DNA from: an uncultured Gammaproteobacteria bacterium
GTDB taxonomy: Bacteria; Patescibacteriota; Microgenomatia; CAZETR01
Length of the DNA: 64,000 bases
Assembly (NCBI GenBank): GCA_964514545.1
Contig: CAZETR010000011.1
Coordinates: forward strand, 102,413-166,412
Reading direction: 5' to 3'
Position numbers and translations under genes: made by a program. Under the pieces are notes generated by a model. That model was given only the letters and a program-made list of their open reading frames with translations, had not been told where the DNA came from and ran no database searches. Shown here piece by piece: positions 2,166-43,425 of the stretch. Position 1 is the first letter of the stretch; each line of letters begins with the position of its first letter.

Positions 2166-3893
2166 TCAGTCAATTTTATCATCAAACTTATAAACACTAA
2201 CTACGTGAGGATCGTCATATATTTCAGTGAGTCCAGTTTGACTGGGACCGAAAGAAAAGTTTTGTCCTTCTAGAAGGTATAGATATTTGATGTTGTTTCT
2301 TTTTAGAAAGGAGGAGGCGTGCTTGTTGTCGGGATCTGACAGAAATTTCTCTACTTGTTCACGTCTTTCCCGCCAGGGGTAAGAGCTGATTTCCAGATTT
2401 ATTTCGTCTTCAATAAATGTCTGGTGACTAGATATCGCTGAAACGTAGGCAGTTGTTTCATAGGCGAAGACAGGTCGAGGCTCCGTAAAACGTTGGAAAT
2501 CCTCTTTTTTAAACGGATATGTCAGGACAACTCCCGGGGGTTGTTTCTTAAGGAAATTTAACGCTTTTAGTTCTGAGCTGGGAATTGCAGCTGGCGGCCG
2601 ATTTGGCAAATAGTTCGGGAGAGTGCCTAAGGTTGAAGGAATTGTAAGTAGAACAATTGAAGTTCTAAGGACTACAGAAATTCCGGGGGATAGTCTGGAT
2701 ATAAAAATAGCCGCAAATATGCCAGCTATTATCTCTGTGTAGTAGAAAAATTGGATGGTGTTCCAGGGGTTGCCTCTCTGCACAAATATGAGCGTCGGGA
2801 TGACTGAGATAAAAAGTGAAATGGTAAGAATTTGTAATATCCAACTACTTGCGCTTTCTGTTTCATTGCTGGGGAAATACTTGTTTTTTCTCAGCAACAC
2901 AACAAACCCAATAGTTCGTGTCCCAAGATTGCCAATCAAAAATACCGTCAGGGCGAACAATTCAGCTGGGATCCATTTGGCTAGATTGCGGGAATTCATA
3001 TAATTTTGCCGGGCACTCGCGAACCTCTCCCAACCAACCCGATCCCGAAATTCCATCATTGTTCTGGGAAACCATAGTGGTTCAATTTTGATTAGTCCTC
3101 CGGCATTTCGGTTAAGGGGAAGAAAAGTAAACATTGAAATTATGAAGATGGCCAGAAATAGCTTTAGAACTGCAAAGTCCCGATAAACAAGAAATCTAAG
3201 GAGTCCGAATATAAAAAGGCTAACCAGGATAATTACTCCGCCGTATACCTTTATGATTGGCAGAAGTCCGAAGATAAATGCGGTTGTCCAAAAGTTTGTG
3301 GCTGTATTTTTTTTGAATAGTTTCAACAGCTGGTTAAAGCCAAGGAATAAAAAAACCAGGGATAACATGAAAGGCGGATTAACTGGGAAGGAGATGGACT
3401 GAATTGACCAGAAGGCAGATTCTCCTCCCAATCCATGTCCCTTAATTAAATTTACTAGATACCCAAAACTACCGCCAAAATAACAAAAAAATATTGCCCA
3501 TAGACCTGTTTTTTGGTTTGCGGTCAACTGGATAACGAGTCGGTACATAAGAAGCCCGACTCCTAGGGATAGTAAGGGGGGCAAGATTTGAAAATAGAGG
3601 ATTGGGATCGGAATTCTGGTCAACTGATAAAGAAGAGCTGCAAGCAAATCGAATCCGAAGTGGTAGTTCTGTATGAGGTTCCCCGCAAATGATGGGTGGG
3701 TAAAGTTAAATTTTGCCAACTGGTTTATAAGCGATATGTGCCAAAGACCGTCGTGCGCGTTGGGTCCCCAGAATCCCATACCATATTTGTAGGATATTCC
3801 ACTTTTGATCATCACCGCGGATTGAGTCGCGGTTCCGATAAGTATTAACAGAGCTGCGCGGAGATCAACACGACGATGAAGCTGCTTAGTCAT
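2166..3893 (-). CDS. polytopic GT-C-like membrane protein with a C-terminal periplasmic domain (putative glycosyltransferase/polymerase)
   Basis: The 583-aa ORF has more than 10 predicted TM helices and a ~200-aa soluble C-terminal domain. The start is probably MTKQLHRR, overlapping the upstream gene by 4 nt. Confidence 0.5.
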   Translation of the reverse strand: MTKQLHRRVDLRAALLILIGTATQSAVMIKSGISYKYGMGFWGPNAHDGLWHISLINQLAKFNFTHPSFAGNLIQNYHFGFDLLAALLYQLTRIPIPILYFQILPPLLSLGVGLLMYRLVIQLTANQKTGLWAIFFCYFGGSFGYLVNLIKGHGLGGESAFWSIQSISFPVNPPFMLSLVFLFLGFNQLLKLFKKNTATNFWTTAFIFGLLPIIKVYGGVIILVSLFIFGLLRFLVYRDFAVLKLFLAIFIISMFTFLPLNRNAGGLIKIEPLWFPRTMMEFRDRVGWERFASARQNYMNSRNLAKWIPAELFALTVFLIGNLGTRTIGFVVLLRKNKYFPSNETESASSWILQILTISLFISVIPTLIFVQRGNPWNTIQFFYYTEIIAGIFAAIFISRLSPGISVVLRTSIVLLTIPSTLGTLPNYLPNRPPAAIPSSELKALNFLKKQPPGVVLTYPFKKEDFQRFTEPRPVFAYETTAYVSAISSHQTFIEDEINLEISSYPWRERREQVEKFLSDPDNKHASSFLKRNNIKYLYLLEGQNFSFGPSQTGLTEIYDDPHVVSVYKFDDKID

Positions 3894-5386
3894 GAGGACT
3901 TCGTAGAAAATAACCAACCAAGGTTTCTGTCCTGAAGAATTCGTCTGAACTCCGGCTCCAATTGATTTTTACTAATCTTAGATAAAGCTAATGAGTAAAC
4001 AATAACCGCGACAATTATAGAAACTGGTATTCCCGTGGGTTTGCTGATAAGTTTGAGAGTTATTAAAAGACTAAGTGACATTAAAAGGGTCGAGGCTAGA
4101 GGATTGATGAAACAAACAACTAAATTAAATCTGATATAGAGCCTGGTAATGATAATCGGGACAATCGAGGTGAGCGCAATGATGGCAGTTGCGTATGCAA
4201 CGCCCATGAAACCCAATCTGAGTGCGAAGATGGGTACGATGGTAAGAGTCGCAATAGTCCACATAATCATTAAATAAAATGTAACCCTGATCTTACCTAT
4301 GGCATTGAGGGCGCTGGTAAGTGGAGTAGAAACTGCAGCCAAAGCTGCCGAGAAAAGATAAAAGTATAAAGGGGTAAGCCCGACTTCCCATTTTGAGTAT
4401 CTGGGAATGAGCTGGATTAATGGCTTGGCCAAAATTCCGAATCCAAAAAGTATCGGAAAGATAAGGGCACAGGAAAAGAAGAGGGACTTTTCTAAAGCTA
4501 GCTTGAGAATTGTTTTATCATCCTGAAGTCTAGAGAGCGCAGGAAACGTTACCTTAGTTACGTTGTCCATGATGAACCGTAAGGGTTTCTGGGACCAAGT
4601 TTGCGCCCAGCCAAGGATGCCAACTCCCTCCGCGCCAATTAATTTAAACAGGATTAGGTTGGTAAATCGATCTTTGATCACGGCCAAAAATGTATTTAAC
4701 TGATAGGGAATTCCGAATTTTAATAATTCTTTCAGCGAGGCAGTTGAAAATGAGAATCCTACCGACCAAGAACCGAGAATATAAAGAAGGGTTGTTCCTG
4801 CTATTCCTCGACCTAGGACGGCAAAAGTATAACTGCTCAGACCATAGCCATTTTTGGCAAGAACTACTGCAATTGAATAGAAAATGAGAGTTTCAACAAC
4901 CTCAACGTACGCGAGCTTGTCAAATTTTAGTGACCTTTCTAGCAGTATTGAGGGGATTGTCTTTAAAGAGGCCAGGAAAAACCCAGCCATCAATGCCAGG
5001 AGCAGATAAACCCCTGACTGAGGGAGATTGTAGAATTTAATCAATTTGGGGAGAGCAAGAAGGACGATTGAAATCAGACCAAGTACCAGCGCTTGTTGAA
5101 TTGTAAATGTAGTGCGAAGGTCCTTGGTACTAGGTTTTTCTTTCTTTTGGATAAGGGCAGCCGCAAGGCCGATATCCGAGAAGTAACCAAGAATTCCGAT
5201 AATTTCTGTTATCGCAAAAAAGAGACCGATCTCTGATCGTCCAAGAAGAACAGTCAAGAAGAAAAAACCGAAGGATGAGATAAGCTGAACTAAGACAGAT
5301 CTGCTTATAAGCGATGTCACTCCCTTAATTGAACGTGATTTGATTAGCTCTAGATCTAGTTCTTCCTGTTGATCGGTTGCTTCCAT
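3890..5386 (-). CDS. Wzx-like oligosaccharide flippase (MOP/polysaccharide biosynthesis protein family)
   Basis: 498 aa with about 12-14 TM helices. The topology and the N-terminal SRSIKGVTSLISRSVLVQLISSFGFFFL region resemble Wzx/RfbX flippases. Confidence 0.7.
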   Translation of the reverse strand: MEATDQQEELDLELIKSRSIKGVTSLISRSVLVQLISSFGFFFLTVLLGRSEIGLFFAITEIIGILGYFSDIGLAAALIQKKEKPSTKDLRTTFTIQQALVLGLISIVLLALPKLIKFYNLPQSGVYLLLALMAGFFLASLKTIPSILLERSLKFDKLAYVEVVETLIFYSIAVVLAKNGYGLSSYTFAVLGRGIAGTTLLYILGSWSVGFSFSTASLKELLKFGIPYQLNTFLAVIKDRFTNLILFKLIGAEGVGILGWAQTWSQKPLRFIMDNVTKVTFPALSRLQDDKTILKLALEKSLFFSCALIFPILFGFGILAKPLIQLIPRYSKWEVGLTPLYFYLFSAALAAVSTPLTSALNAIGKIRVTFYLMIMWTIATLTIVPIFALRLGFMGVAYATAIIALTSIVPIIITRLYIRFNLVVCFINPLASTLLMSLSLLITLKLISKPTGIPVSIIVAVIVYSLALSKISKNQLEPEFRRILQDRNLGWLFSTKSS

Positions 5387-5400
5387 AAACTCATTTTAGA

Positions 5401-6513
5401 CTAACTCTTGAAGAAATTCTTTCTAATGCTTTGTGAAAAGGACCAAAAAAAATAAATTGTTAGCATGCTGAGAAATGGAGAAACTAATAGAAAATATCTG
5501 GGAAAGGCGCTAGTCATAGAGATAAAGATTAGATAAGTTCCGACCCACAACCAGATTAATAAAGCCAGTATGTCTTTCCTTAAAGCTATGAAAACTATTG
5601 CTAATACGCCTAATAATGTTATTGAAGGCCATAAGATGTTCCATTCGGAAACCCTAATAAATTCCGGCCCGGGCCACCAAGTTCTCCACCATCCGGTGGC
5701 TATCATTCTGATTCCCCCTCCCCATGGGGCCTGAGCATTTCCGGCCCACCAACCGGTAAGCCATCGCTGAAATTTTAAAAAACTAATAAGGCTTGGGTCG
5801 TGGGCAAACCTCGGTAGATAGGGAATGAAATATCCGACGACTGTAAGTAATAAGCTTTTGTTGAAACTGATAAATGAATAAAATCTTTTATTCAGCACCA
5901 GAACAACTTGCAATATACTAAGAAGTAACAAACCGTTAAAGTAAAATTTGATCGTCATGGAAAGACCTAAACATAGAGCTGAAAGATAGAACCAATTCCT
6001 GCTCTTGAGACCTCGTATAAAAAAATAGATACTAAGGGAAAATGCTAATAATTGACTTGTGTCTAAATTTGCAGTGGTTAATAGATATCGGAACTCGGAA
6101 TCCATGCTTTCCAGAATGATGACTAAAATAGGCAGTGTAGAGTTCGGAAATAATTTAAGGGAAATTAAATAAAGAACTCCTAGTTCAAGCAATCCGAGAA
6201 TAAGGTTGATGATGTTTTGGTTGCGGAAAAGAACAATACTCAGTCCAATTAATTGTTTTCCAAGTGGGGGAACTTCGGGGTGCAGTGCTGTCGGATCTTG
6301 TCCTTTTATATATTTATAGCCTAATATAGAGTAAAGTTCGCTATCGGAAAACTCGTGTTTTGCCTTTCCCCCCATCACTACTTGTGACACTGAGAATTCC
6401 TTTTGCCAATAATCTATATCGTACGGCGTGAGGTATGCTTGGCGATTATTGTATATAAATTGACCAAGGTTGATGATTAGTATTACCAGAAGCAGTGTGT
6501 TCAGTTTTTTCAT
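5401..6513 (-). CDS. PMT/ArnT-like GT-C membrane glycosyltransferase (GT39-like)
   Basis: A first extracytoplasmic loop carries LHPEVPPLGKQL, matching the conserved HPPLGK motif of protein-O-mannosyltransferase/ArnT-type GT-C enzymes. Multiple TM helices. Confidence 0.5.
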   Translation of the reverse strand: MKKLNTLLLVILIINLGQFIYNNRQAYLTPYDIDYWQKEFSVSQVVMGGKAKHEFSDSELYSILGYKYIKGQDPTALHPEVPPLGKQLIGLSIVLFRNQNIINLILGLLELGVLYLISLKLFPNSTLPILVIILESMDSEFRYLLTTANLDTSQLLAFSLSIYFFIRGLKSRNWFYLSALCLGLSMTIKFYFNGLLLLSILQVVLVLNKRFYSFISFNKSLLLTVVGYFIPYLPRFAHDPSLISFLKFQRWLTGWWAGNAQAPWGGGIRMIATGWWRTWWPGPEFIRVSEWNILWPSITLLGVLAIVFIALRKDILALLIWLWVGTYLIFISMTSAFPRYFLLVSPFLSMLTIYFFWSFSQSIRKNFFKS

Positions 6514-7907
6514 TTTAGGGGCTGTTCGTCCCAGACCAAGCCAACTCCACCGGTTTGAAATTGGGGGGTGGTGTTGAGATATCTGGGCGGAATTACGATG
6601 CTATATATGATCTGCGGTTTATTTGGATCCAAGGTGATTTTACTTCGCCAAAAAAGATAGTCAAAGCCAGTATTGTATCCCGACGAAATAAGAGAGGGAG
6701 AGATGCTTAATCGTCTACCGCTTGAATGACTTATAATTTTGTCAACTATCTGCTTCTTGGCCAATAGATTTGGTTCCTTAGTGAAATTCACCCACTGGTA
6801 AAAGTTAATACCCGCCAGAATGAGAATGGACAAGATAGTGACCCGATTTAACTTTGGGTGTTTAATAAAGTATGTCATTATAAGGCTCCAAATTAGCACC
6901 GTTGGGGCATATATCACCATTGGGTAATAGTCGGTGATGTGTCCAGGATAGAGAAGAAGCGAGAACGTGGTAGTCATAAATAAGAGGATGTAGGTTTGAA
7001 AAGAAAGTTTAACTTTGGCAATTATTAGTTCGCGGTAACTGATAATGGCAAAGGTGAGAAAAATTGGGAAAAAATAGAATCCCCTGAGATGAAGTCCGTT
7101 GCCAAGAATGCCAACAGGATTGTTTAACATGATTCGGAGAGGATCCCAGAAATTGATACCACCCTGTGATAGTTTGCTAAACAGACTCACCAGTGAGTCC
7201 GTGATTCGAAAATTGTGCCTTAGGTCAAAGAGCGCTAATGGCAAGGTTGTGAAGAAAAATGAAAGAATAGGGATGAAAAACTGTTTTATTGTATCGAATT
7301 TATAGCGATTTAGAGAAAGATAGATTACTGAAGTCAAAAGAAGGATTATCGAGGTGGGGTGAAAGTGAAGCCCAAGGCCGAGGATAATAAAGTGAAGAGT
7401 AAGATATTTAGAATCCGAAAGTTTCAATAGTGTATAAAACCATAAAGTGGGAATCAAAAACATTCCGTTTAGGGGAGAGGCTCCGCTGTCCCAGGTTATT
7501 GTAAAAGTGGAAAATTGGTAAATAGCTGCTGCAATAAGGCCTGTAGTTTGGTTGTAAACGAAATCCCCTAGTTTAAATAATGCCAGAGTACTCAAAACCC
7601 CGAAGAGTATTGCAAGATAACCACCCCCGACGGGGTCCATGTTAAATATCCAGTAAAATAGATTGGAGAGGTAGGTGTAAAGAGGACCGATGAATAAACC
7701 ACGCACGCTTGCTTCCTGGCCAATTAAGGTAAATTTATGATCGACTAGCATTTTTTTTGCTTCCCAGGCAAAAAAACTGTTGTCGTACTCAAATGACAAA
7801 CGCGACTGAAAGTGATACAAACGGAGCAACGTTCCCAGTAAAACGAATGTGGCCAGAAGCATCCTGTTGCGGTCAGATTTTGCGAGAAGGCGGTTGAATT
7901 GGAGCAT
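6510..7907 (-). CDS. GT-C family membrane glycosyltransferase (ArnT/PMT_2-like paralog)
   Basis: 465 aa, polytopic. An N-terminal loop motif EYDNSFFAWEAK...LIGQEASVRGLFIGPLYTYL is shared with the 10184 and 11692 paralogs. Confidence 0.6.
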   Translation of the reverse strand: MLQFNRLLAKSDRNRMLLATFVLLGTLLRLYHFQSRLSFEYDNSFFAWEAKKMLVDHKFTLIGQEASVRGLFIGPLYTYLSNLFYWIFNMDPVGGGYLAILFGVLSTLALFKLGDFVYNQTTGLIAAAIYQFSTFTITWDSGASPLNGMFLIPTLWFYTLLKLSDSKYLTLHFIILGLGLHFHPTSIILLLTSVIYLSLNRYKFDTIKQFFIPILSFFFTTLPLALFDLRHNFRITDSLVSLFSKLSQGGINFWDPLRIMLNNPVGILGNGLHLRGFYFFPIFLTFAIISYRELIIAKVKLSFQTYILLFMTTTFSLLLYPGHITDYYPMVIYAPTVLIWSLIMTYFIKHPKLNRVTILSILILAGINFYQWVNFTKEPNLLAKKQIVDKIISHSSGRRLSISPSLISSGYNTGFDYLFWRSKITLDPNKPQIIYSIVIPPRYLNTTPQFQTGGVGLVWDEQPLK

Positions 7908-9438
7908 TTAACTTGAAAAACAAAAGGTGTTCTGTTTCGCGATTAGAATTAGCTGTTTTGGGATATGAATTTATTAGACTAAGCCCAACTAAGGCAGGGT
8001 TTTTAATTGATAAACGGGAGTCATTGATAACTAAATATACATCATTGTCGATCAGGCTATTTGATAAAGACTCGGGAACGTGATCCGGAAATAGTCCGAT
8101 GCCGATTATTCGAATGTGGCGAAAATCGTTAAGATACATTTGTAACCCATCTGGTAATGTTCCAAAATATCCTTCCGTTCCGACCAGAATTGGTTTCGTA
8201 GGTTGTTGTTTTAAATAGTTTGCGACCTCCCTAATGCCGTAACCTGCCGTCCACAACTCGAAATATCCTGATTTTTCCGATTGCGGGAGATTTTGGGTTT
8301 CTGGCTTCGTTACAAGCAAAAAGGACAAAATAATTGGCCAGGAAAAGAGAAAAAAAACGACAAAGATTGAAAGATTTAATTTATTCCTGGTATTTCGCTT
8401 GTTATTGAGAATAAAACTCGCACCGGACGCAGAAAGAATTAGGAAAAATGGTATCACGTAGAGGAAGTATCTTGCCGTCAATACTTTAGCTATTAAGTTT
8501 TGAGCCATGAACGGCACCAAAAAGAGAATGATTAGATATAATGTCGGTGTGGCTTTTTTCCTTAACCCAGTAACTACCCCGACAAGAGCGAGCAGTATTA
8601 CCGGCGGTGTCAGGAAATAACCCAAATACGAAACGGCCGTTGAGGTGTTGGGGATTATCGGGGTTAAGGGATGTTTTACAATTTCGGAAAGCGGAAAAAC
8701 ATAGTCTTTGTTTCGCAACGAAATCATATGAAACTGCGGACCCAGCCGAAGGATGTTATACATGCTAATAGCTATTAGATAAATGACAAGCAGTAGAAAT
8801 GAGTTAGAGATTACGGATTTGGTTTTTCCCTTTAGGCTTGCTTGGTGATTTAGACCATATAGCAAAAAGGGCAGCGGCAACATCAATGTGAATAACTGGG
8901 CCGGAGATTTGGTAAGCAGGGAAAACCCGAGAAAAAATCCGGTAATCATAGCTGTGTCCAGGCGATGTGTCTTGGCTGTAATCAGAGCGAGGACAAAGGT
9001 CCAAGTTCCAAGGAAGGCTAAAAGGCTATCGACAAGAGCAAATCTATCAAAAAAAATTAAATAGGGGCAGAGGGAGGCTAAGATCAAGCTAAAGAAGGTT
9101 GTTGACCTGTTTTTGTAAACTAAGTGGGCAAGAATAGTTATTCCTACAACTGAACCCAATCCCGAAAGAACTGAAACGAGGCGGCCTGCGAATAACGGAT
9201 CGGTGGGTATCAGCTTTAGGAAGGGAATTATAATCCACATGAATAGGGGCTGTTTACCATCGCTGAGCGGTAAAAACCTTAAAGTAGACTCGGCACGCAT
9301 AACCTGAGCCCACCGGATGTAAATTGCCTCATCTGCAAATATAGGAACATTGTTTAGGGAAAAAATTCTGAAGAGTGCACCCGCGAGAAAGATTAGGGTG
9401 ATCAAAAGCCAAGTTTTGAAAGAGGCGGCCTTATACAT
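7873..9438 (-). CDS. ArnT-like GT83/GT39 polyprenyl-phosphate-sugar-dependent glycosyltransferase
   Basis: FADEAIYIRWAQVM...GKQPLFMW matches the ArnT family DEAxY...KPPLxxW signature. 521 aa, polytopic. Confidence 0.65.
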   Translation of the reverse strand: MYKAASFKTWLLITLIFLAGALFRIFSLNNVPIFADEAIYIRWAQVMRAESTLRFLPLSDGKQPLFMWIIIPFLKLIPTDPLFAGRLVSVLSGLGSVVGITILAHLVYKNRSTTFFSLILASLCPYLIFFDRFALVDSLLAFLGTWTFVLALITAKTHRLDTAMITGFFLGFSLLTKSPAQLFTLMLPLPFLLYGLNHQASLKGKTKSVISNSFLLLVIYLIAISMYNILRLGPQFHMISLRNKDYVFPLSEIVKHPLTPIIPNTSTAVSYLGYFLTPPVILLALVGVVTGLRKKATPTLYLIILFLVPFMAQNLIAKVLTARYFLYVIPFFLILSASGASFILNNKRNTRNKLNLSIFVVFFLFSWPIILSFLLVTKPETQNLPQSEKSGYFELWTAGYGIREVANYLKQQPTKPILVGTEGYFGTLPDGLQMYLNDFRHIRIIGIGLFPDHVPESLSNSLIDNDVYLVINDSRLSIKNPALVGLSLINSYPKTANSNRETEHLLFFKLNAPIQPPSRKI

Positions 9439-10180
9439 ATCTACCCAGAAGATCGTTGATTCTAACTCTGGCGACTTCCTTGAGCATCTCTATAGACTCC
9501 TGAATAAATTTTCTTTCCTTTGAATTACTGGTATCTGTGTCACTCCAATCTACGGTAACTTCTTTAAGTTTAAATCCTTTCTTTAGAGTGACATAAAGAA
9601 GTTCTACGTCCCAAGCGCCTACTCTCCACCCAATTCCACGCTCCCGGCGAAAAACGAACAAATGTCTAAAAATCTCTCTGGCAACTTCTAACTTAAATAA
9701 TTTAAAACCGCACTGCGTGTCTTTAATTTGCGGGAGAATAAGAAAACGCCTAAAAAGGAGAAATAAAGGGGAGGCAATTTTTCGCAGAATAGGAAAATTC
9801 TCTCTTCTAAATCCCCTGGAACCAATGACTACGTCAAAGCCATCTGTTAGATAAGGCTTGAGCTTATCCAGTTCTCTGATCGGAGTAGACTGATCCATAT
9901 CGGAAAAGAGTACGAATTTACCGCGGGCTATATCGACAGCGCTTTTTATAGTAAAGGCTTTTCCCCCTTTGGAATTTTCCAGAAGCGAAAATCCCTTTTT
10001 TGTTTTTATGGCGTTTGAAACGTACTCACGGCTTCCGTCGGTTGAATAATCGTCGGAGATGATTACCTCCCAGTCAAAGTCCTGTTTTGTTAGATAGGTT
10101 TCAACTTCTTCTAAAACTCCCCGCCTTAAATTGGCAAGCTCGTTGTAGCAAGGAATGATAACTGTTAGGTATGTATTCAC
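9431..10180 (-). CDS. GT2 polyprenyl-phosphate sugar synthase (GtrB/Dpm1-like)
   Basis: VIIPCYNE...ISDDYSTDGS...FSDMDQS...VIGSR are typical Dpm1/GtrB motifs. Confidence 0.8.
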   Translation of the reverse strand: MNTYLTVIIPCYNELANLRRGVLEEVETYLTKQDFDWEVIISDDYSTDGSREYVSNAIKTKKGFSLLENSKGGKAFTIKSAVDIARGKFVLFSDMDQSTPIRELDKLKPYLTDGFDVVIGSRGFRRENFPILRKIASPLFLLFRRFLILPQIKDTQCGFKLFKLEVAREIFRHLFVFRRERGIGWRVGAWDVELLYVTLKKGFKLKEVTVDWSDTDTSNSKERKFIQESIEMLKEVARVRINDLLGRYV

Positions 10181-10183
10181 TTT

Positions 10184-11689
10184 TTATGGTTTATAGTCTT
10201 TGTTGCGGGTTCGTCTCTGGACCGTAATGCCTCCAAAGCTTGCCTCGTAGGATACCTGACCGATACCGGCCTGGCGATTTAGCCAAGCCGCTAGTCGCTC
10301 TGGATGAGGAGGATCTTGTTCGTAAAGAGTATAGAGCAGGGGCACCCACCCTGTCTGTGGGAGTTTGTGGGCGCGATTTCCCATCCAAAGAAATAGATAA
10401 TCGTAGGCATATGGAATGACTGGAGGAACGTATACGTCAACGTTAAATGGTGTTGTACCTGAGTCGGTTAAGACCCATTGAACTGCCTGCTTTTGGTTAC
10501 CGAGCGTGATGTGTGTCGGTCCGTCTGTCCCGGCAATAAGTGAGTTTTTAGCGAGAGGGATGTTTGTCCAGATAAAGGTGATCATGAATAGAGAAACTGC
10601 GATTTTTCCGATTGGCTTGTTTAGTTGAGAAGTTAATGAGATGGAAACCAGGAGAATGAAAATCGGAAAGCTTCCAGAGAGATGATAATCGTAGACATTT
10701 CCGTGGTTACCCTGATAAAACAAAAGCAGCAGAAGCTGGGGGATAGTGAGAATGAGAGCTGATTTTGTCAAAGGCGAATCCCAAGTTCTTACGGTAACTA
10801 ACATAAAAATGATTAAAACTGGTAATCCCCACTTGATCAAATTTTGATTGTAGGCGAAGAGCTTATTACCAAAGCCGTTTTGATAAAGTGCTAGTCTATC
10901 CCTGAATAAGTCTTGAGGTTGGCCTTGAAAGCTTTTTTCGGAAATTAATTGGTTTGTGATATTTTTAAGCATTATATGTTGGTGGCGAAAGTCAAAAACT
11001 GCCTGGGGCAGAAGAGTAAGTGAAAACAATAGCAAGGAGATGGCTAATGTCTTAAGCGGTGGTCTGTTCGGCCATTGCCAAATTAAAAAAAGAATCGTGG
11101 CCGGAATAAAAAACATGGCTGAAGCAACCTCAAACTGAAGCGATAGACCGATTGTCAGAAACGCCAGTGTCCAATAACTAGTTTTTCCGCCGGTAATTTT
11201 ATTGAAGCAATAGAGAAGTATGGTGCTACCGACCATGACCGGCGGGGGGTTACTTAACCAGCGATTGAGCCAAAACATTGGCTGGGAAAAAGCATATATA
11301 AATGCAGCCAAAACTCCGGCTGCTTTATTTGTTGTCCGTCCGAGCTTATAAAGGAGATAGATGGGAACAAGTTGAAGCGCACTAATAAACATGGCGGGTA
11401 TTACTGGATTTCCCTTACCCAACCAATAGAACGGCGCAATCAATAAGTAGAAGGCAGGACCCAAAAAAATGCCGTCTAGTCCCGTAACCGGGCCAACTAA
11501 AAAAAATTTTCCTCGAGTGAGAAACTGGTTAATGACCAGGGCATCTCTGCCTTGATCGTAATAGAATCCGAGCAGGTCACCTAAACGGAACCAGCGGACA
11601 AAGACGGCTCCAACAAGAATGAGCGCAATTGAAATTTTCTCTATCCTTGCCCAACTGAATGCGTTTTTAGTTTTTGCCTTATTTTTCAT
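10184..11689 (-). CDS. GT-C family membrane glycosyltransferase (paralog)
   Basis: Polytopic. YYDQGRDALV...LVGPVTGLDGIFLGPAFYLL loop motif as in the paralogs. Confidence 0.6.
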   Translation of the reverse strand: MKNKAKTKNAFSWARIEKISIALILVGAVFVRWFRLGDLLGFYYDQGRDALVINQFLTRGKFFLVGPVTGLDGIFLGPAFYLLIAPFYWLGKGNPVIPAMFISALQLVPIYLLYKLGRTTNKAAGVLAAFIYAFSQPMFWLNRWLSNPPPVMVGSTILLYCFNKITGGKTSYWTLAFLTIGLSLQFEVASAMFFIPATILFLIWQWPNRPPLKTLAISLLLFSLTLLPQAVFDFRHQHIMLKNITNQLISEKSFQGQPQDLFRDRLALYQNGFGNKLFAYNQNLIKWGLPVLIIFMLVTVRTWDSPLTKSALILTIPQLLLLLFYQGNHGNVYDYHLSGSFPIFILLVSISLTSQLNKPIGKIAVSLFMITFIWTNIPLAKNSLIAGTDGPTHITLGNQKQAVQWVLTDSGTTPFNVDVYVPPVIPYAYDYLFLWMGNRAHKLPQTGWVPLLYTLYEQDPPHPERLAAWLNRQAGIGQVSYEASFGGITVQRRTRNKDYKP

Positions 11690-11691: not shown

Positions 11692-13845
11692 TTAAGTTGG
11701 CTTTATGTGAGCTAATTTGAAAACTTTAACGCCCCAGGGGAAGTTCCATTCCGAATCAATTTTGGTCCATCCAAAGGCGGCTATTTCCCACTCGGGGTTG
11801 CCGACTGGCTGACATGTCTCGTCTTCGCAGACGACAAAAAGTTGATCGGTTACCTGATCTTTTACTTTCCTGTATGGGGCATCATTAAGCTCAAGAAAAT
11901 ACGCGTAGCTTTTGTCATAGTTTCGTTTAGCAATCAGGGCAAAGTTAAAGGGTTTTCCGGCTGATTTCTCTATTACAAACTGAGAAATAGTCCGAGTTCG
12001 CGAAAGCTGGTTATTGGGTGGAGTCTGAAGTGGATTGTTTTGTATACTAATTATGGCAATTGTCACAAATATTGGAACTGAAAGGTATTTGAGGGCCTTG
12101 AAAACGAAGCCGAGGAGAAGAAAAACTGCCGGAAACAGAAATCCATAGTAATGACTGTAGATATGCTGTTTGTAGAGACCTAATCCAATTAATCCGAATG
12201 TTACCCAGGCAAGAACAAAAAACTGGTCGAGAAAGTTGAATCTTTTTTTAAAAGAAAGAAGTGTTCCAATTGGGAAAAGAATTGAGATGATACTAGAGAA
12301 TAAGGCGTTACGGACACCGAAGAGGGCGGCATTTATGTCCTTCCATATGGGCCAGAGATTGGGAATTGCCTTATAGGCCTTGAAATTTACTGTTGTTTGA
12401 CGATTGGAAAAGAAGGCGATAATTGCCCTGGAATTTAGAAAATTGTGCCTGAGGTCAAACCAGAGAAGAGGTGACATAAGAAGTAAAAAAATGATTGCGG
12501 CTAAGGCTATGTGTTTTTTAAAGCCTGTTTTTTTGGGAGAAAGGGCCACAAATAATACAATTGTGGGAGCGAGTAAAAGACCTAAATAATGTGATTGCAG
12601 AACAAAGGCGAACGAAACGGCACTTGCCACAAGCCATCTCCAATAACCGAATTTAGCAACTTTCCAGATACCGTACATTGTGAGCAGGGCAAAGAAAGGC
12701 ATGACATTGGGATTCCAAGAGGAACGGGAATAAATTATCGTAGTTGATGAGATAGCGTAAAGAGTAGAAACTGCAAGAGCTTCAATTCTTCCGAACCATT
12801 GTCTGCCTGCCCACCAAATGAGGGCAATTGTAGCTAAGCTGAAAAGGGCAACCATGACTGCCGGGCCCACAGGTGAATAGTTGAAAAGAAGGAGTGGAGG
12901 CAGCATCAGGTAGTAATAGAGCGGACCGAGGTACATATTACCGACTGAGGTTTGGGGGCCGATCAGCGCCGGGTGGAGTTCCTGGATCATTCGCCGGACA
13001 ATAAGAACATCACGTCCTTCATCTCCTAGAAAGGTTAAGTATTGATCGATTTTGTAAAGTCTTAAAAATCCGCCCACAAGGAGTATAACTACTAAGGTTG
13101 CAAGTTCCCATTTGAAGACGGCCCGGCCCTGTTCAACGAGTATCTCCTTTTTTAATTGCCACCAAAAAATTATCAATTCCCGAAATGCTTTGAAGATAAC
13201 TTTGGGGTTCCCCCCCGTGGACTTTCCTGCTGTCCGAGGTAAATGGGTAACTGGAAGTTCTGCGATCGACATTCCCCTAGCCCGGGCGCCCGCGAAAAGC
13301 TGGGTGTCGATCATAGCTCCATTTGAGGGGAGGCTGATTTTTTCTAAAATATTCCGGCGAAAGAGTTTGAATCCGCAGTCTACGTCTGTGGCAAGATAGC
13401 CAAAGAGAGCCCGAACTATTGTGTTCCATCCCCATCTAAATATTCTCCGGTGAAAAGGATCACTGTCCTGGGTCCTGATGCCACTGACTATGTCGGCATT
13501 GGTCTGGGATTGTTTTTCAAGCAGCCTTTTAATCTCGGAAAAATCGAATTGGTTGTCAGATGGAACAAATGCTATAAAGTCGTTTTTGGCTGCATAAAAG
13601 CCAGTCTTAAGCGATCCTCCATAGCCCTGGTTTGGATTGTTTTCAATTACTCTGGTGTTTGGGATATTTTTGGCCAGGATTTTGGCTACTGTCCCGGTTT
13701 TATCTTTTGAGCCGTCGTTGACAATAATTATTTCCCAATCCAGACTTTTTAATCCTTTGAGGGCCTTAAATAAATTCTGTAAACAAGCGGCAATGTTCTT
13801 TTCTTCGTTGTAGGCTGGAACCACGACTGAGAGGCTTTTAGGCAT
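11692..13845 (-). CDS. bifunctional fusion: N-terminal GT2 polyprenyl-phosphate sugar synthase plus C-terminal GT-C membrane glycosyltransferase
   Basis: The N-terminus (VVVPAYNEEKNI...VNDGSKDKT...FVPSDNQ...SGIR) is GT2. After about 230 aa it becomes a polytopic GT-C carrying LGDEGRDVLIV...LIGPQTSVGNMYLGPLYYYL. It is one uninterrupted 717-aa ORF. Confidence 0.7.
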   Translation of the reverse strand: MPKSLSVVVPAYNEEKNIAACLQNLFKALKGLKSLDWEIIIVNDGSKDKTGTVAKILAKNIPNTRVIENNPNQGYGGSLKTGFYAAKNDFIAFVPSDNQFDFSEIKRLLEKQSQTNADIVSGIRTQDSDPFHRRIFRWGWNTIVRALFGYLATDVDCGFKLFRRNILEKISLPSNGAMIDTQLFAGARARGMSIAELPVTHLPRTAGKSTGGNPKVIFKAFRELIIFWWQLKKEILVEQGRAVFKWELATLVVILLVGGFLRLYKIDQYLTFLGDEGRDVLIVRRMIQELHPALIGPQTSVGNMYLGPLYYYLMLPPLLLFNYSPVGPAVMVALFSLATIALIWWAGRQWFGRIEALAVSTLYAISSTTIIYSRSSWNPNVMPFFALLTMYGIWKVAKFGYWRWLVASAVSFAFVLQSHYLGLLLAPTIVLFVALSPKKTGFKKHIALAAIIFLLLMSPLLWFDLRHNFLNSRAIIAFFSNRQTTVNFKAYKAIPNLWPIWKDINAALFGVRNALFSSIISILFPIGTLLSFKKRFNFLDQFFVLAWVTFGLIGLGLYKQHIYSHYYGFLFPAVFLLLGFVFKALKYLSVPIFVTIAIISIQNNPLQTPPNNQLSRTRTISQFVIEKSAGKPFNFALIAKRNYDKSYAYFLELNDAPYRKVKDQVTDQLFVVCEDETCQPVGNPEWEIAAFGWTKIDSEWNFPWGVKVFKLAHIKPT

Positions 13846-13859
13846 GGTACAATAATAAC

Positions 13860-14981
13860 ATGAAGCGCCTACGAGTTTGGGCGGTGCTTGCCTTAGTTAC
13901 CGTCCTTTCCACGTTTTTAGTCTGGGTGCCGTTTTGGCTAAGACTACCTTCTTTTTGGGGAATCAGGATTCCGCCTGACGGCATGGGAACAGTTTTTCGC
14001 AACTTTGACGGACCGTTATATCTGGTTGTTTCTAAAACTTTCTATAACTTTGCGCTGGGAAATCGATTTGAGTTCCCTTTGGCGAACGAATATTACTCGG
14101 CGCATTTTCCTCTCTATCCTCTAATTATCCGGGTTTTGGGAATCGGTTTTAGCTTTCCGTGGGCCATGCTCGTTGTCACTTTAATTTCCAGTGTCTTGGC
14201 TGCCTGGATCTTTTACGAGCTTGCCTTGGATTGGTTTGACCAGAAAAAGGCGTTTTGGCTTACCTGCTTATTTTTGATTTTTCCGGCTAGGTTCTTGGTC
14301 GTCCGCTCTATAGGGTCGCCAGAACCACTCTTTATGTTTTTAATGATGACCTTTGTCCTGGGTTTAATGAAGAAAAATTACTGGATGGTCGGGATTGCCG
14401 GGATTTTGGCGGTTCTAACTAAGAGCCCGGGGGTACTACTGATTGTAGGTTACGGGGTATACCTAATTTTGACAAGGACTGTCCTTGTCAGGCCGTTTAA
14501 GGAGTATTTAACTGTAGCTTTAATCCCGCTAGCACTTCTGGGGTTATTTGGTTTTTATAAATTCCGCTACGGAGATTTTTGGACCTATTTCCACTCGGGA
14601 AATAATATCCATCTCCAGTTTCTGCCATTTAGGGTTTTTAACTTTCAACAAGACTGGGTCGGAACTCATTGGCTGGAAGATATCATTTGGGTTTATACAT
14701 TTGGGTTGATTGGTCTTCTGAGACTGATTGATAAGAAGAAAAACGAGATGGTTGCATTTGTGGGAGTATATTTGTTGTCGATTTTCTTTGTCTCTCACCG
14801 AGACATTTCCAGATATGCATTACCAATTATGCCATTTGTGCTTCTGTCTCTCGGGGATGTTATTGAAGTCAAATATTTGAAATGGTTTATCTGGGTAATG
14901 TTTTTCCCCATACTTTTGTACTCAATTAATTTTATTGCCAATAATACTATGCCGGTTTCTGGTTGGGGACCTCTTCTTTAA
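13860..14981 (+). CDS. hypothetical polytopic membrane protein (possible GT-C/mannosyltransferase-like)
   Basis: 373 aa with about 10 TM helices. It is the only plus-strand gene inside the glycosylation cluster. No firm family was recognised. Confidence 0.4.
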   Translation: MKRLRVWAVLALVTVLSTFLVWVPFWLRLPSFWGIRIPPDGMGTVFRNFDGPLYLVVSKTFYNFALGNRFEFPLANEYYSAHFPLYPLIIRVLGIGFSFPWAMLVVTLISSVLAAWIFYELALDWFDQKKAFWLTCLFLIFPARFLVVRSIGSPEPLFMFLMMTFVLGLMKKNYWMVGIAGILAVLTKSPGVLLIVGYGVYLILTRTVLVRPFKEYLTVALIPLALLGLFGFYKFRYGDFWTYFHSGNNIHLQFLPFRVFNFQQDWVGTHWLEDIIWVYTFGLIGLLRLIDKKKNEMVAFVGVYLLSIFFVSHRDISRYALPIMPFVLLSLGDVIEVKYLKWFIWVMFFPILLYSINFIANNTMPVSGWGPLL

Positions 14982-14999: not shown

Positions 15000-16121
15000 C
15001 TAATTTTTCTTCTTCCAAATGACGCGTGTATACATGAAGTAATTATACGGGAGAACTAAAAAGACAATTGCAAGAGCAAGAATAACTTGCCTGTGCTGTG
15101 AGCCAAAGAAATTTACTCCGATGGTACCTACAACTATTTGGATAAGTAGTCCCCCACTTGAGGTTAAATTGAATTGAAAAAACTTGGCGATTAAACTTTT
15201 GACACCCCTGATCTGGCCTGATTTGAATGTCCAAAGATTATTAAGGGTGAAATTGGATATAATTGCTAATTCTGTGGAGAAGGTCCACGAGGCCCATTCG
15301 AATAGCCCAATACGGGAGAAGAAATTGAGAGTGGTAGCATTTATAAGATAGCCTATAAAGCCGACAACGCAGAACTTGAAAAAACGCAGGAGTTTAGGGT
15401 TATGAGCTTGGAGAAGAAAAATGACTCTTAGGGTTTCCTGCATTTCGTTTTTAATAATTTTTGAGTCGCCAGATGTTCGGGGTTGAAACTGAATAGGAAT
15501 TTCTTTTACTTTGGCTCCTTTATGGACCATGTAGAAAAGAAGGTGGATTTTGTAGGCAAAGCTACGCGAGAGAAGTGTGTCAAAATCAAAATCGGCCATG
15601 AAACCTTTTACCCCGGAGAGTCGAAATCCTCCCGTGACGTCGTGGATCTGGGGCAGAAGAAGGAGTACGCGGGCGATGAGATTTCCGATCACGCTCAATA
15701 GTTTTCTGTCCAGTCCCCAATTTGCGGGAATAGACCCGCCTTTGATGTAACGGGACCCAATAATATAATCATACCCGTTGTCGATTTCATCAATAAGTTT
15801 AGGAATGTCTTCGGGCCGGTGCTGAAAATCTCCGTCGAATTCCATCAGATAGTCAGCATTTAATTTATCCATCGCAAACTTCATTCCCTTGGCATAGGCT
15901 TTTCCTAACCCCTCTTTTCTTTTTTCTAACAACAAATGCAGCCAAGGACGTGTTTTTTTCTTCTCGGATACTATTTGGGCTGTTTTATCCGGACTGTTGC
16001 CATCTACGTACAGGAGGCTTGTGTCGTGCTTAATTTTGGGAATTATTTTATCTAAAGCACTAATCATCCGTAGGGTGTTGTCTTTTTCGTTATATGTTGG
16101 AATAACAATGACTATTTTCAT
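15000..16121 (-). CDS. GT2 polyprenyl-phosphate sugar synthase with a C-terminal GtrA-like TM domain
   Basis: VIPTYNEKDN...YVDGNSPDKT...FDGDFQH...IGSRY, followed by a roughly 4-TM C-terminal GtrA-like region. Confidence 0.8.
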   Translation of the reverse strand: MKIVIVIPTYNEKDNTLRMISALDKIIPKIKHDTSLLYVDGNSPDKTAQIVSEKKKTRPWLHLLLEKRKEGLGKAYAKGMKFAMDKLNADYLMEFDGDFQHRPEDIPKLIDEIDNGYDYIIGSRYIKGGSIPANWGLDRKLLSVIGNLIARVLLLLPQIHDVTGGFRLSGVKGFMADFDFDTLLSRSFAYKIHLLFYMVHKGAKVKEIPIQFQPRTSGDSKIIKNEMQETLRVIFLLQAHNPKLLRFFKFCVVGFIGYLINATTLNFFSRIGLFEWASWTFSTELAIISNFTLNNLWTFKSGQIRGVKSLIAKFFQFNLTSSGGLLIQIVVGTIGVNFFGSQHRQVILALAIVFLVLPYNYFMYTRVIWKKKN

Positions 16122-16933
16122 GGCAGTATTTTAAGCTTTTCAAAGCGAATTTGAAAAGCGAGGAGGATGTATTCAATGATGTCGTGAAGATAAGTGCGCA
16201 GGTATTTGGGGTTAAAGCTGACTTTTGACTCACCGGCGGTACGAAATCTGTACGTTACTGGAAACTCGTGAAACTTTTGGGTAACTAGGGTTAGCTTGAA
16301 GAGAAAGTAGTTGAAAAAACCAAAGCCCACAGTACTCATGCGGCCAAAATCAACCCGGTCCAGGACACCCTTGACCCTAATAGCGCGAAAGGCGCCGTTG
16401 TGGTCGTAAACCTCCTTAACCCCCGCAACCCAGGTGGCAAATAATTTATTGGCAACCCAGTGATTTAGCTTGCGATTAAAATTCCAACCCTCGGTTTTAC
16501 CATTTCCAACGTGGCGGGAGCCAACAATTACATCGAATCCCTCGTCAATTTTTTTGAGCATATAGGGAATATGTTTTGGGTCGAAGCCAAAGTCTGCCTC
16601 GTTGGGGATAATCACGTCAGGGCGAAGATCTTTGAGAGCGTATTTGATTCCCCGGATCATAGCAACCCCCAGTCCCTGTTTCTTGCCGGTAAGTAAGAAT
16701 AGGCTTTTGTCTCTTTTTTGAAACTCTTTAACAACGTCTTGGGTTTTGTCCGGAGAATTGTCATCGACTACCAGGATTAAGTGTTTGTGTTTTTTGTCAT
16801 GCGCGGCAATATTTTGCAGAACCGGGATCATTTTGGTAATATTTTCCCTTTCGTTGTAGGTGGGAATTAAATTCACAACTACGGCCTTTTGCATACGACG
16901 AATATACTGCGAATTTGATACAATTGACATCAT
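16118..16933 (-). CDS. GT2 polyprenyl-phosphate mannose/glucose synthase (Dpm1-like)
   Basis: LIPTYNEREN...VVDDNSPDKT...VGSRH are Dpm1-like motifs. Its start codon abuts the trmD start on the opposite strand. Confidence 0.8.
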   Translation of the reverse strand: MMSIVSNSQYIRRMQKAVVVNLIPTYNERENITKMIPVLQNIAAHDKKHKHLILVVDDNSPDKTQDVVKEFQKRDKSLFLLTGKKQGLGVAMIRGIKYALKDLRPDVIIPNEADFGFDPKHIPYMLKKIDEGFDVIVGSRHVGNGKTEGWNFNRKLNHWVANKLFATWVAGVKEVYDHNGAFRAIRVKGVLDRVDFGRMSTVGFGFFNYFLFKLTLVTQKFHEFPVTYRFRTAGESKVSFNPKYLRTYLHDIIEYILLAFQIRFEKLKILP

Positions 16934-18688: not shown

Positions 18689-19126
18689 ATGATGAGAAAG
18701 AATATTAAAATCAAGGTCAAAAACTCAGGCTTCGTAAAGCTCCAGGTTTTTAAAGACCCTCCAGATGGAGATTTGTTTATAGCGGAATATTCTCGCCATA
18801 TTCCTTTCAAAGTTAAACGTGCATACTTCATAAACCATCTCGATAATAAAAATGCAGTTCGCGGCAAACACGCACATAAAAAGCTCGAACAACTTGTCTT
18901 CTGTATAAACGGTTCTTTTTCTCTACACTTGGATGATGGAGATAAAAAACAGAAGGTTGCTCTCGAGGATCCATCTATCGGAGTAAGGTTAGGGCCATTG
19001 CTTTGGCACGTTATGACAGACTTTTCAAAAAACTGTGTTATTTTGGTTCTCGCTGATGACCTTTATAGAGAAAGTGACTATATTAGGAATTATCGAACAT
19101 TCCTGAAGCTTTCCAATAAATTATGA
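18689..19126 (+). CDS. fdtA: dTDP-4-keto-6-deoxyhexose 3,4-ketoisomerase (FdtA/QdtA/WxcM-like cupin)
   Basis: 145 aa. VRGKHAHKKLEQLVFCINGS...GPLLWH...DYIRNY is the WxcM/FdtA signature. A GGAGAG RBS lies upstream. Confidence 0.75.
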   Translation: MMRKNIKIKVKNSGFVKLQVFKDPPDGDLFIAEYSRHIPFKVKRAYFINHLDNKNAVRGKHAHKKLEQLVFCINGSFSLHLDDGDKKQKVALEDPSIGVRLGPLLWHVMTDFSKNCVILVLADDLYRESDYIRNYRTFLKLSNKL

Positions 19127-20253
19127 TTCCATTTAATGAGTTTGAAAGAAAATATAGTCGATATAGAAAAGAAATCCTAAAAGTCGTCGATGAAACATTT
19201 AAAAAAGGCTGGTTTATCTTGGGACCCGAACTGCAAAAATTTGAGGAAGATTTCGCAAAATATCTTGGGGTAAAGTTTGTAGTCGGGGTAAATTCAGGAA
19301 CTGACGCCTTGTATTTGGCGCTGAGGGCACTAGGAATAAGAAACGGGGACGGCGTAATAACGGTTGCTAATACAGCTACTCCTACGGTCTCTGCAATTCG
19401 AATGGCTGGTGCAGTCCCGATCTTTGCGGATATAGACCCTGAAACTTTAACTATTGATCCCCGGCATGTCGAGAGAAGAATTAATCCCAAGGTAAAAGCA
19501 ATTCTTCCTGTTCACTTGTTCGGCTACCCGGCAAACATGCCCGCACTCATAAAACTGGCCAAAAAACATAAAGTAAAATTGATCGAAGATGTCTGCCAAG
19601 CTCATGGGGCACAAATATCTAATAAGTTTCTGGGTACGTGGGGAGATATTGGCTGTTTCAGTTTTTATCCGACAAAAAACTTGGGCGCATTCGGAGACGC
19701 CGGGGCTATCGCCACAAACAACAGGAAAACTGCCGATGCAGTCAAGTCTCTTAGAAACTATGGAGAAATTCGAAAATACTATAATACCAGAGAGGGGGTC
19801 AATAGCCGGCTTGATGAACTTCAAGCAGCTTTTCTAAATTGGGGGCTTACCTATCTTGATCAATGGAATAAAGAAAGAGAGAGCATTGCCCGAATTTATC
19901 TCGCGAATCTAAAAGATATCCCCCTTGAATTGCCAAGCGAATCCGACAGTAAAGTTCGTCGAGTTTGGCATCTCTTTGTTATAAGGTCTCAAAGAAGAGA
20001 TGGCTTGAAAAAATATCTCGAGTCAAAAGGAATTCAAACTTCAATTCACTATCCTCTTGCTATCTACCAGCAACCGGCCTACAGTTTCTTGGAATACGGA
20101 AATAGAGATTTGCCTATTACGTCCATGGTAAATAAACAAATCCTCTCTCTGCCATTGTATCCAGAATTAACAAAAGAAGAGGTGGAAAGAGTTTGTAAGG
20201 AGATCAGGTCTTTTTATTCAACTACAAAGATATTTGAGGAGAGAAACCTATAA
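19123..20253 (+). CDS. fdtB: DegT/DnrJ/EryC1/StrS-family PLP-dependent sugar aminotransferase (FdtB/QdtB-like)
   Basis: GPELQKFEEDFAKYLG...GTDAL...SFYPTKNLGAFGDAG; the Lys of the YPTKNL motif is the PLP-binding residue. Overlaps fdtA by 4 nt. Confidence 0.85.
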   Translation: MIPFNEFERKYSRYRKEILKVVDETFKKGWFILGPELQKFEEDFAKYLGVKFVVGVNSGTDALYLALRALGIRNGDGVITVANTATPTVSAIRMAGAVPIFADIDPETLTIDPRHVERRINPKVKAILPVHLFGYPANMPALIKLAKKHKVKLIEDVCQAHGAQISNKFLGTWGDIGCFSFYPTKNLGAFGDAGAIATNNRKTADAVKSLRNYGEIRKYYNTREGVNSRLDELQAAFLNWGLTYLDQWNKERESIARIYLANLKDIPLELPSESDSKVRRVWHLFVIRSQRRDGLKKYLESKGIQTSIHYPLAIYQQPAYSFLEYGNRDLPITSMVNKQILSLPLYPELTKEEVERVCKEIRSFYSTTKIFEERNL

Positions 20254-20374
20254 GCCGGAAGGCTCCAGAAGTGATAGTATTGGTTGCGATACACAAATTC
20301 AAGAATGAAAATGGCGCTGCTTGGTGTTGACTTTGGTTTTGATGCGAATAAAACAGCTGCCGAAAAAATTTGTG

Positions 20375-23058: not shown

Positions 23059-23108
23059 GCGAAGATTATTGCCTTAATTGGGGCAAGAAATCAAGTAAGA
23101 AATTTGGT

Positions 23109-37060: not shown

Positions 37061-37092
37061 TCGTCTTATTATCCGGTAAAAGCATCGCCTAA

Positions 37093-37800: not shown

Positions 37801-37807
37801 CTCAAGT

Positions 37808-39718: not shown

Positions 39719-39733
39719 AGTCTACAATTACTA

Positions 39734-40834: not shown

Positions 40835-40857
40835 TACTTGATGTAACGTTTGTATTT

Positions 40858-43409: not shown

Positions 43410-43425
43410 GAGATAATTATATCCT

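Follow-up and report, generated by a model that had tools for sequence, protein, structure and literature searches.

Glycosyltransferases of the GT-C fold are known to spend polyprenyl-phosphate sugars that are made by family 2 (GT2) synthases; the ArnC/ArnT, GtrB/Gtr, and Ppm1/Mpt systems are established examples. In the three-component systems of this type (ArnC/ArnE-F/ArnT; GtrB/GtrA/Gtr-type GT-C; CsbB/GtcA/YfhO; and streptococcal GtrB/PgfS with a GT-C), neighbouring genes encode a GT2 synthase of the cytoplasmic face and a polytopic GT-C partner that works on the outside. Here we describe a gene that joins the two enzyme types in one reading frame. It lies in a 64,000-nucleotide stretch of contig CAZETR010000011.1 (GenBank assembly GCA_964514545.1, positions 102,413 to 166,412), which we call the window, and its host belongs to an uncultured candidate phyla radiation (CPR)/Microgenomates lineage. 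We consider it likely that the 717-residue product is a bifunctional membrane glycosyltransferase, the covalent form of a conserved and usually translationally coupled GT2 and GT-C pair. The locus resembles the three-component systems in this pairing, but synthase and transferase form a single polypeptide here, or a coupled gene pair in relatives. The synthase has no transmembrane (TM) helices of its own, while GtrB and ArnC have two each. No small dedicated GtrA or SMR flippase gene was found in the cluster, which has a GtrA-like domain on another GT2 and a MOP flippase.

Two other described proteins invite comparison. In Mycobacterium tuberculosis, the D1 and D2 parts of Ppm1 (Rv2051c) are fused, whereas M. 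smegmatis (Ms-ppm2 and Ms-ppm1) and Corynebacterium glutamicum encode them separately, with an interaction shown for the two M. smegmatis proteins (PMC3485146). The present protein is like Ppm1 in that a polyprenyl-phosphate sugar synthase without TM helices occurs in some species as a fusion with a polytopic membrane protein and in others as the product of one of two adjacent genes. In Ppm1, however, the membrane domain is N-terminal, has six TM helices and does not consume the product as a GT-C would, whereas the partner here is C-terminal and itself a GT-C. The type III dolichol-phosphate-mannose synthase of Pyrococcus furiosus (PfDPMS, PDB 5mlz) has a GtrA-like membrane domain of four TM helices; the membrane domain here is a GT-C transferase with approximately 11. 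AglD of Haloferax volcanii, a GT2 with a soluble region of residues 1-259 and so a further membrane-associated C-terminal part, was weighed as an archaeal analogue and set aside, the paper on it being silent on any likeness to GT-C enzymes. Neither a GT2-GT-C fusion nor this CPR gene cluster was found described in the searchable literature, a weak absence given how thinly subscription journals are covered there.

The gene and the parts of its product are as follows.

11692..13845, minus strand: whole fusion gene, 717 amino acids plus stop; ATG start at 13845, reading frame uninterrupted
13210..13845, minus strand: residues 1-212, predicted cytoplasmic GT2 catalytic domain of GT-A fold and polyprenyl-phosphate glycosyltransferase type, with interface helix 1 at residues 131-148
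13549..13563, minus strand: residues 95-99, P-S-D-N-Q, a variant of the DADLQ motif as aligned to 5mlz and ArnC
13114..13209, minus strand: residues 213-244, fusion junction, with amphipathic interface helix 2 (residues 214-238, including the conserved W228) and a short linker that runs straight into TM1
12040..13113, minus strand: residues 245-602, GT-C membrane domain with approximately 11 predicted TM helices; PMT_2 match at residues 308-462
13009..13029, minus strand: residues 273-279, L-G-D-E-G-R-D, acidic motif of the first loop after TM1, predicted to be extracytoplasmic, and presumed GT-C catalytic site
11695..12039, minus strand: residues 603-717, C-terminal alpha/beta domain, probably extracytoplasmic, with the invariant cysteine pair C673 and C678

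An earlier note on this stretch had proposed that the open reading frame at 11692-13845 joins a Dpm1-like GT2 synthase to a GT-C domain in one polypeptide, and had named the absence of an internal stop and a database search for the domain architecture as checks. The architecture, a synthase domain of the Dpm1/ArnC/GtrB type and a GT-C domain in one chain, is borne out. The frame runs through 717 codons on the minus strand, while the plus-strand translation is riddled with stops. Pfam places Glycos_transf_2 (PF00535) at residues 6-170 (E 4.9e-33, 114.9 bits against a curated cut-off of 23.3) and PMT_2 (PF13231) at residues 308-462 (E 9.8e-10, 39.3 bits against 26.1); since both scores exceed the curated cut-offs, neither is a chance match. 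More than 100 full-length fused homologues of 43-68% identity emerged from a search of 5.8 billion proteins, essentially all with the PF00535+PF13231 architecture. They come from many unrelated metagenomes as well as from named Amesbacteria, Woesebacteria, Daviesbacteria and Microgenomates genomes, and such proteins have stood under generic names in the public databases since 2015.

The obvious artefact to consider is an indel near residue 230, from sequencing or assembly, that merged a GT2 gene with an adjacent GT-C gene. The junction DNA contains T6 and A6 homopolymer runs, many relatives have two overlapping genes in different frames at exactly this position, and an rmlA-like gene elsewhere in the window appears to be broken by a one-nucleotide indel in a G-run, which suggests that indel errors or true frameshifts do occur in this assembly. 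Against this, a protein of 717 amino acids and 100% identity, with the same neighbours, is encoded both by the 220-kb NCBI contig and by run ERR3478687 as assembled separately in Logan, and the fused homologues stem from unrelated assemblies. An alignment of 39 of them, which also underlies the conservation figures below, is continuous over the junction (residues ~213-262), the sole gap being a difference of ~10 residues in linker length between clades. Invariant residues stand in frame on both sides of the junction (H201, R204, T210, G211 and V216 before, R262 and F272-D279 after), and W228 is conserved in at least 90% of the sequences. Past the homopolymers, the linker EILVEQGRAVF(K/R)WE is kept as protein, in frame on either side of the runs, in the closest fused relatives (L002, L004, L008 and L019 among our loci). 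An artefact is therefore highly improbable, and the 717-residue GT2-GT-C fusion is a genuine single polypeptide, with no frameshift or misjoin.

The N-terminal half (residues 1-240) looks like an active polyprenyl-phosphate sugar synthase. Its top PDB matches, by sequence (with the first 260 residues as query) and by structure, were exclusively polyprenyl-phosphate glycosyltransferases, namely ArnC, PfDPMS and GtrB, and its catalytic domain has the GT-A fold of this group. The ArnC alignment (E ~2e-15) covers residues 3-217; that with PfDPMS (E 1.3e-14) covers residues 4-262 and reaches through the interface helices. Model helices 131-148 and 214-238 align with the region of PfDPMS interface helix 1 (Arg131, Ser135) and with that of interface helix 2 after the A-loop. 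The fusion protein had no equivalog-level match in NCBIfam, the best being ArnC at 66 bits against a cut-off of 529. The best partial matches of its N-terminal part (ArnC, PgfS, AglJ, a haloarchaeal dolichol-phosphate-hexose transferase and PpgS) are mostly polyprenyl-phosphate sugar synthases, and weaker ones are GT2 enzymes of exopolysaccharide (EPS) and teichuronic acid synthesis.

In PfDPMS, Glu12 locks the A-loop, Asp39 recognizes the base, Asp91 and Gln93 are metal-diphosphate ligands, Arg117 and Arg131 bind the lipid phosphate, and Arg202 belongs to the A-loop (PMC5526996). Mapped through the 5mlz alignment, the counterparts of these residues are conserved in the 39 homologues: E14 (Glu12), D44 (Asp39), D97 and Q99 (Asp91 and Gln93) and R204 (Arg202) are invariant, and R124 and R133 (Arg117 and Arg131) are present in at least 90%.

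The best structural matches of the C-terminal half (residues 245-717) are PMT and ArnT, at 13-14% identity in the structural alignment, and they place it in the polytopic GT-C fold. This match came from fold comparison alone: searched by sequence, the PDB held nothing similar to the GT-C half at E<=10. A Pfam scan of the fusion protein found no MIR domain. Because the GT-C half lacks a MIR domain and any sequence-level match, we assign it to an uncharacterised GT-C subfamily and not to the GT39 PMTs. It differs in the same respects from the yeast (Pmt1/2/4) and bacterial (Pmt) GT39 enzymes and from ArnT (GT83), and its C-terminal alpha/beta domain has an ArnT/PglB-like position.

In the model, interface helix 2 (214-238) leads into TM1 (245-263), followed by a 45-residue loop that carries LGDEGRD, approximately ten more TM helices, and the domain of residues 603-717. 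The acidic residues D275, E276 and D279 lie 12-16 residues past TM1, in the first loop, as in GT-C enzymes. Six of the seven motif residues (L273, G274, D275, G277, R278 and D279) do not vary among the homologues, and E276 is kept in at least 90% of them. The half has further invariant polar motifs: SSWNPN at 375-380, H419-Y420, S458-P-L...D464...H467...N471, and Y563/H565/Y566. If the GT2 domain is cytoplasmic, all of these would lie on the same side of the membrane as the DEGRD loop, and the short loops on the opposite side are basic. The motifs of the presumed outer face (L273-D275, G277-D279; S376-N380; H419-Y420; D464, H467; Y563, H565, Y566) remain invariant down to 44% identity. A loop signature shared with the neighbouring GT-C paralogs, which the earlier note had pointed out, holds as an Asp just after TM1 in four of the five neighbouring GT-C reading frames.

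To see how general the fusion is, we turn to the orthologous position in other genomes. A scan of one genome per species (GTDB) gave at least 524 genomes with a relative, and the best 80 loci were analysed. Gene order is strongly conserved (GT2-GtrA, divergent GT-C, fusion, GT-C, GT-C, GT2, GT-C ... MOP flippase) and is still recognisable around a fused relative of 35% identity (L082). The position is fused in 32 of the 80 loci. In another 32 it is split into a GT2 of 230-247 amino acids and a GT-C of ~480-560 amino acids with a short -1-frame overlap, and in 10 the two genes share one frame, with a stop codon and a spacer in between; about 46 of the 80 loci are split in all. The remaining 6 are mostly at contig edges or have a more divergent upstream GT2; one of them, L038, is an apparent fused gene whose GT2 part is frameshifted.

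The overlapping pairs follow a recurrent pattern. The GT2 ends in ...LW(K/R)KL(R/K)*, and the ATG of the GT-C lies within the conserved Leu-Trp codons (a 19-nucleotide overlap) or in an ATGA overlap, which, judged from this arrangement of start and stop codons, is classical translational coupling. The split GT2 proteins stop at interface helix 2 and have no TM helix. The unfused GT2 thus lacks an anchor of its own, and the GT-C partner most likely doubles as its membrane tether. Some of the overlaps hold A6 runs (for example TGG AAA AAA CTT) with the GT-C frame at -1. Programmed -1 frameshifting in the split genomes was rejected as a general mechanism, because the A-run is not conserved in the 31 overlaps inspected, which mostly use an ordinary ATG/ATGA restart. 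The A-rich lysine codons may nevertheless ease frame-restoring indels.

In a neighbour-joining tree of the GT-C halves, which is approximate, the fused genes form at least two to three separate clades: a large Daviesbacteria-like clade, the Amesbacteria-like clade of the window, and a lone gene (L009) in a clade of split ones. Within the fused clade of the window sits a sub-group of split loci (L015, L034 and L017). Its GT-C half is 57-59% identical to that of the window protein, and its GT2 is 42% identical (L015 and L034; L017 is cut by a contig edge). Members of the fused clade have GT2 halves that are 58-70% identical to that of the window protein and carry P/H-[SA]-D-N-Q in place of D-S-D-G-Q. 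These figures suggest that the GT2 of the window clade either evolved fast after fusion or was exchanged for another synthase, around the time of fusion. The fusion probably arose more than once, through small frame-restoring indels in the short gene overlap.

The earlier note had called such a fusion rare. Within the lineage this does not hold, as about 32 of the best 80 species-level genomes are fused and more than 100 protein clusters at 90% identity have the architecture. In the wider subfamily fusions are a minority. With the GT-C half as query, 1.84 billion representatives at 50% identity yielded 497 relatives at E<=1e-30; ~9 of the best 150 are of fused length, and most of those checked have PF00535+PF13231. 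The fused state is a recurrent, derived minority of a conserved gene pair, common in this lineage and not the rule. As for the note's further contention that the fusion is direct evidence for GT2-made donors, this was overstated: it is a Rosetta-stone inference, strengthened by the occurrence of fused and split forms at the same locus. Taken together, the earlier note is partly supported, with the architecture largely right.

Two side observations came from these searches. One relative of 736 amino acids (P0131) has a GT-C half that is 45% identical to the query and starts at residue 246; its N-terminal 245 residues gave no GT2 or other Pfam match at E<=0.001 and may be a different or degenerate domain. 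Many related loci, moreover, bear the deposited name 'uncultured Gammaproteobacteria/Pseudomonadales bacterium', or in one case 'Clostridia bacterium', despite a Microgenomates-type cluster. L047, for example, is OZ246419.1, an 810,692-bp 'chromosome' of CPR size that carries such a cluster. These deposited labels look like placeholders or errors; the named relatives are Ames-, Woese-, Davies- and Shapirobacteria.

The genes around the fusion in the window are listed here.

3890..5386, minus strand: MOP/Wzx-type flippase (Polysacc_synt_3), syntenic in related loci; candidate translocase of lipid-linked sugar
5401-6513, minus strand: GT-C paralog, 370 amino acids
6510-7907, minus strand: GT-C paralog, 465 amino acids
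7873..9438, minus strand: GT-C paralog, 521 amino acids, with PMT_2 and PMT matches; partner of the 249-residue GT2
9431..10180, minus strand: stand-alone GT2 without TM helices, 249 amino acids, GTG start; 8-nucleotide overlap with the next GT-C
10184..11689, minus strand: GT-C paralog, 501 amino acids, with a D-x-GRD loop motif, 2 nucleotides from stop to start relative to the fusion gene; syntenic in most related loci
13860..14981, plus strand: divergent GT-C paralog, 373 amino acids
15000..16121, minus strand: GT2 fused to a GtrA/DPMS-type domain of four TM helices (GtrA_DPMS_TM, Pfam), 373 amino acids, similar to type III PfDPMS; syntenic, candidate source of flippase activity
16118-16933, minus strand: GT2
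18689-19126: FdtA-type 3,4-ketoisomerase
19123-20253: DegT-type aminotransferase
20375-21343: RmlD-like reductase
21309-22427: 4,6-dehydratase
35163-36014 and 36011-37132: two FemAB-family reading frames
39734-40834: LCP (LytR-CpsA-Psr) ligase
40858-42951: DUF2298 membrane protein, 697 amino acids
43426-44559: GT4

Beyond the MOP flippase, the minus-strand run also includes a 583-amino-acid membrane protein and another GT2. The GT-C at 10184-11689 has in common with the fusion both D-x-GRD and the LxGP...G...LGP motif that follows it. Fused and unfused GT2-then-GT-C arrangements stand side by side in the same operon (the fusion, and 9431-10180 with 7873-9438), and related genomes often have one or two copies of the 249-residue type of GT2 ahead of its GT-C. 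That the fusion is a recent product of this neighbouring pair was rejected, the paralogs being too distant: a BLASTP comparison of the fusion with the window's neighbours matched just two of them, at 25-26% identity. The fusion gene and the divergent 373-residue GT-C start 14 nucleotides apart (13846-13859), and a tiny head-to-head gap is kept in nearly all related loci, so each promoter must sit inside the opposite gene. A promoter and terminator scan around the fusion gene gave no more sites than expected by chance. Alongside the fusion no stand-alone small GtrA or SMR flippase gene was found; the GtrA-like domain at 15000-16121 and the MOP flippase at 3890-5386 are both syntenic. The tandem array of GT-C genes recalls the extracytoplasmic build-up of mycobacterial arabinan and mannan by many GT-C enzymes.

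Farther along the window, the set at 18689-22427 is one for a deoxythymidine diphosphate (dTDP)-linked 3-amino-3,6-dideoxyhexose and might supply the neighbouring GT2s with an unusual sugar donor, and the envelope genes at 35163-44559 fit a wall glycopolymer pathway of Gram-positive type. The rmlA-like glucose-1-phosphate nucleotidyltransferase gene (22328-23060, minus strand) has an apparent one-nucleotide deletion in a G-run (GCGGGATTACAG), with the N-terminal ~50 amino acids in one frame and the remainder (reading frame 22328-22912, covering only Pfam profile positions 51-241) in another. It is either a pseudogene or a homopolymer indel error of the assembly.

We suggest the following model for the bifunctional enzyme. 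The GT2 domain, in the cytoplasm, would take a nucleotide sugar by way of E14, D44 and the metal site of D97 and Q99, as the conserved residues and the fold indicate, and move the sugar onto polyprenyl (probably undecaprenyl) phosphate held between the two interface helices, while R124, R133 and R204 would position the phosphates. The resulting polyprenyl-phosphate monosaccharide would arise at the inner face and be flipped to the outer leaflet, for which the GtrA-like domain of the 15000-16121 GT2 and the MOP flippase at 3890-5386 are candidates. There the GT-C domain, to judge by its fold and its invariant extracytoplasmic motifs, would spend the lipid-linked sugar on an acceptor, and the freed polyprenyl phosphate would go back to the synthase. 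A polyprenyl-phosphate-linked donor is what both GT-C family membership and the fusion or pairing with a synthase point to. A wall glycopolymer as acceptor fits the LCP ligase, FemAB, DUF2298, GT4 and dTDP-3-amino-3,6-dideoxyhexose genes of the window; surface proteins are equally possible. Likely gains from the fusion are tethering of the synthase to the membrane, a fixed 1:1 stoichiometry and co-localisation, and local recycling of the carrier, and the coexistence of fused and split forms argues for functional coupling of synthase and transferase.

Several points weigh against or qualify this model. The placement of the GT2 site inside and the GT-C site outside is drawn from model helix positions, charge distribution and analogy: a cytoplasmic GT2 domain precedes TM1, the TM count is odd, the short loops on the presumed inner side are basic, and the C-terminal domain has a cysteine pair. 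With the active sites on opposite faces of the membrane, direct channelling of the intermediate would be impossible and a flipping step would be required, a point absent from the earlier note. The cluster also contains ~5 GT2 and 7 GT-C genes, and the fused GT2 might feed several GT-Cs, not solely its own. Within the GT2 site, the motif set is less complete than first described: D97 and Q99 of the DXD-type motif are invariant, but its first Asp is absent (P95-S96-D97-N98-Q99). The position corresponds to PfDPMS Asp89 and is P or H across the clade, with Asp in more distant fused and split homologues (DSDGQ). Asp89 contacts the sugar and is not a metal ligand, and the D89A variant retains residual activity (PMC5526996). 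Two other sugar-contact positions are changed as well, PfDPMS His94 to Phe100 and Lys178 to Met. Since these contacts differ, DPMS is no guide to the sugar specificity, and mannose bound as in PfDPMS is improbable; the window clade may have switched specificity, and a reduced activity of the GT2 domain is conceivable. The approximate nature of the tree should be borne in mind too.

The same substitutions could be read to mean that the GT2 half is a conventional enzyme acting on some other cytoplasmic-face acceptor, such as a lipid-linked oligosaccharide, a glycolipid or a polymer, and that the GT-C half works on an unrelated substrate. The NCBIfam scores far under their cut-offs and the weaker matches to EPS and teichuronic acid GT2s agree with this. 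We give it a slim chance of being right, however: the top matches are all polyprenyl-phosphate GT2s aligned through the interface helices and the A-loop, the arginines that bind the lipid phosphate and that of the A-loop are conserved, and the domain terminates in an amphipathic helix abutting the membrane, as in DPMS. A different possibility is that the GT-C half mainly anchors the synthase, as Ppm1-D1 and DPM3 do, with the product used by other GT-Cs of the cluster, or with the fused GT-C using the donor of another GT2. Unfused GT2 orthologues without a TM helix do need a membrane partner, GT-C genes outnumber GT2 genes in the cluster, and Mt-Ppm1 is fused to a membrane protein that leaves its product unconsumed (PMC3485146). 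We nonetheless think that anchoring as the main function is unlikely, because invariance of the extracytoplasmic motifs down to 44% identity points to a catalytically constrained GT-C and no mere anchor, and because the pairing of GT2 and GT-C at this locus is kept, fused or split, in nearly all of the 80 species genomes. A tethering role and catalytic coupling are mutually compatible.

One could also go further than the bifunctional model and imagine a self-contained machine, in which synthase, translocase and transferase activities and carrier recycling are combined in one polypeptide without a separate flippase, the same applying to an obligate complex of the split proteins. Passage of the polyprenyl-phosphate sugar from the inner to the outer leaflet would then fall to the GT-C membrane domain itself, or to the contact of interface helix 2 with TM1. 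The GtrA-like domain of PfDPMS was recently proposed to flip the enzyme's own product (PMC12992685). We regard a self-contained machine as quite unlikely, and favor the bifunctional enzyme with a separate flipping step, for which other proteins of the cluster are candidates.

No paradigm is overturned by these observations. The two-step logic is known from the Arn, Gtr and Ppm/Mpt systems, and the fusion is a naturally joined form of a two-enzyme pairing that is already known. A single chain with a cytoplasmic and an extracytoplasmic half-reaction is attractive for cryo-EM and for reconstitution of donor hand-over, lipid flipping and carrier recycling, and if the self-contained machine were real, it would be a tractable single-protein model for how polyprenyl-phosphate monosaccharides cross the membrane. 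The fused and split loci also suggest a synthase without TM helices that is apparently held at the membrane by its transferase. More broadly, fusion and fission at one locus in several clades provide comparative evidence that a polyprenyl-phosphate sugar synthase and a specific GT-C form a working unit, and they identify a large uncharacterised GT-C subfamily and a conserved envelope-glycan cluster with multiple GT-C genes in the uncultured Microgenomates.

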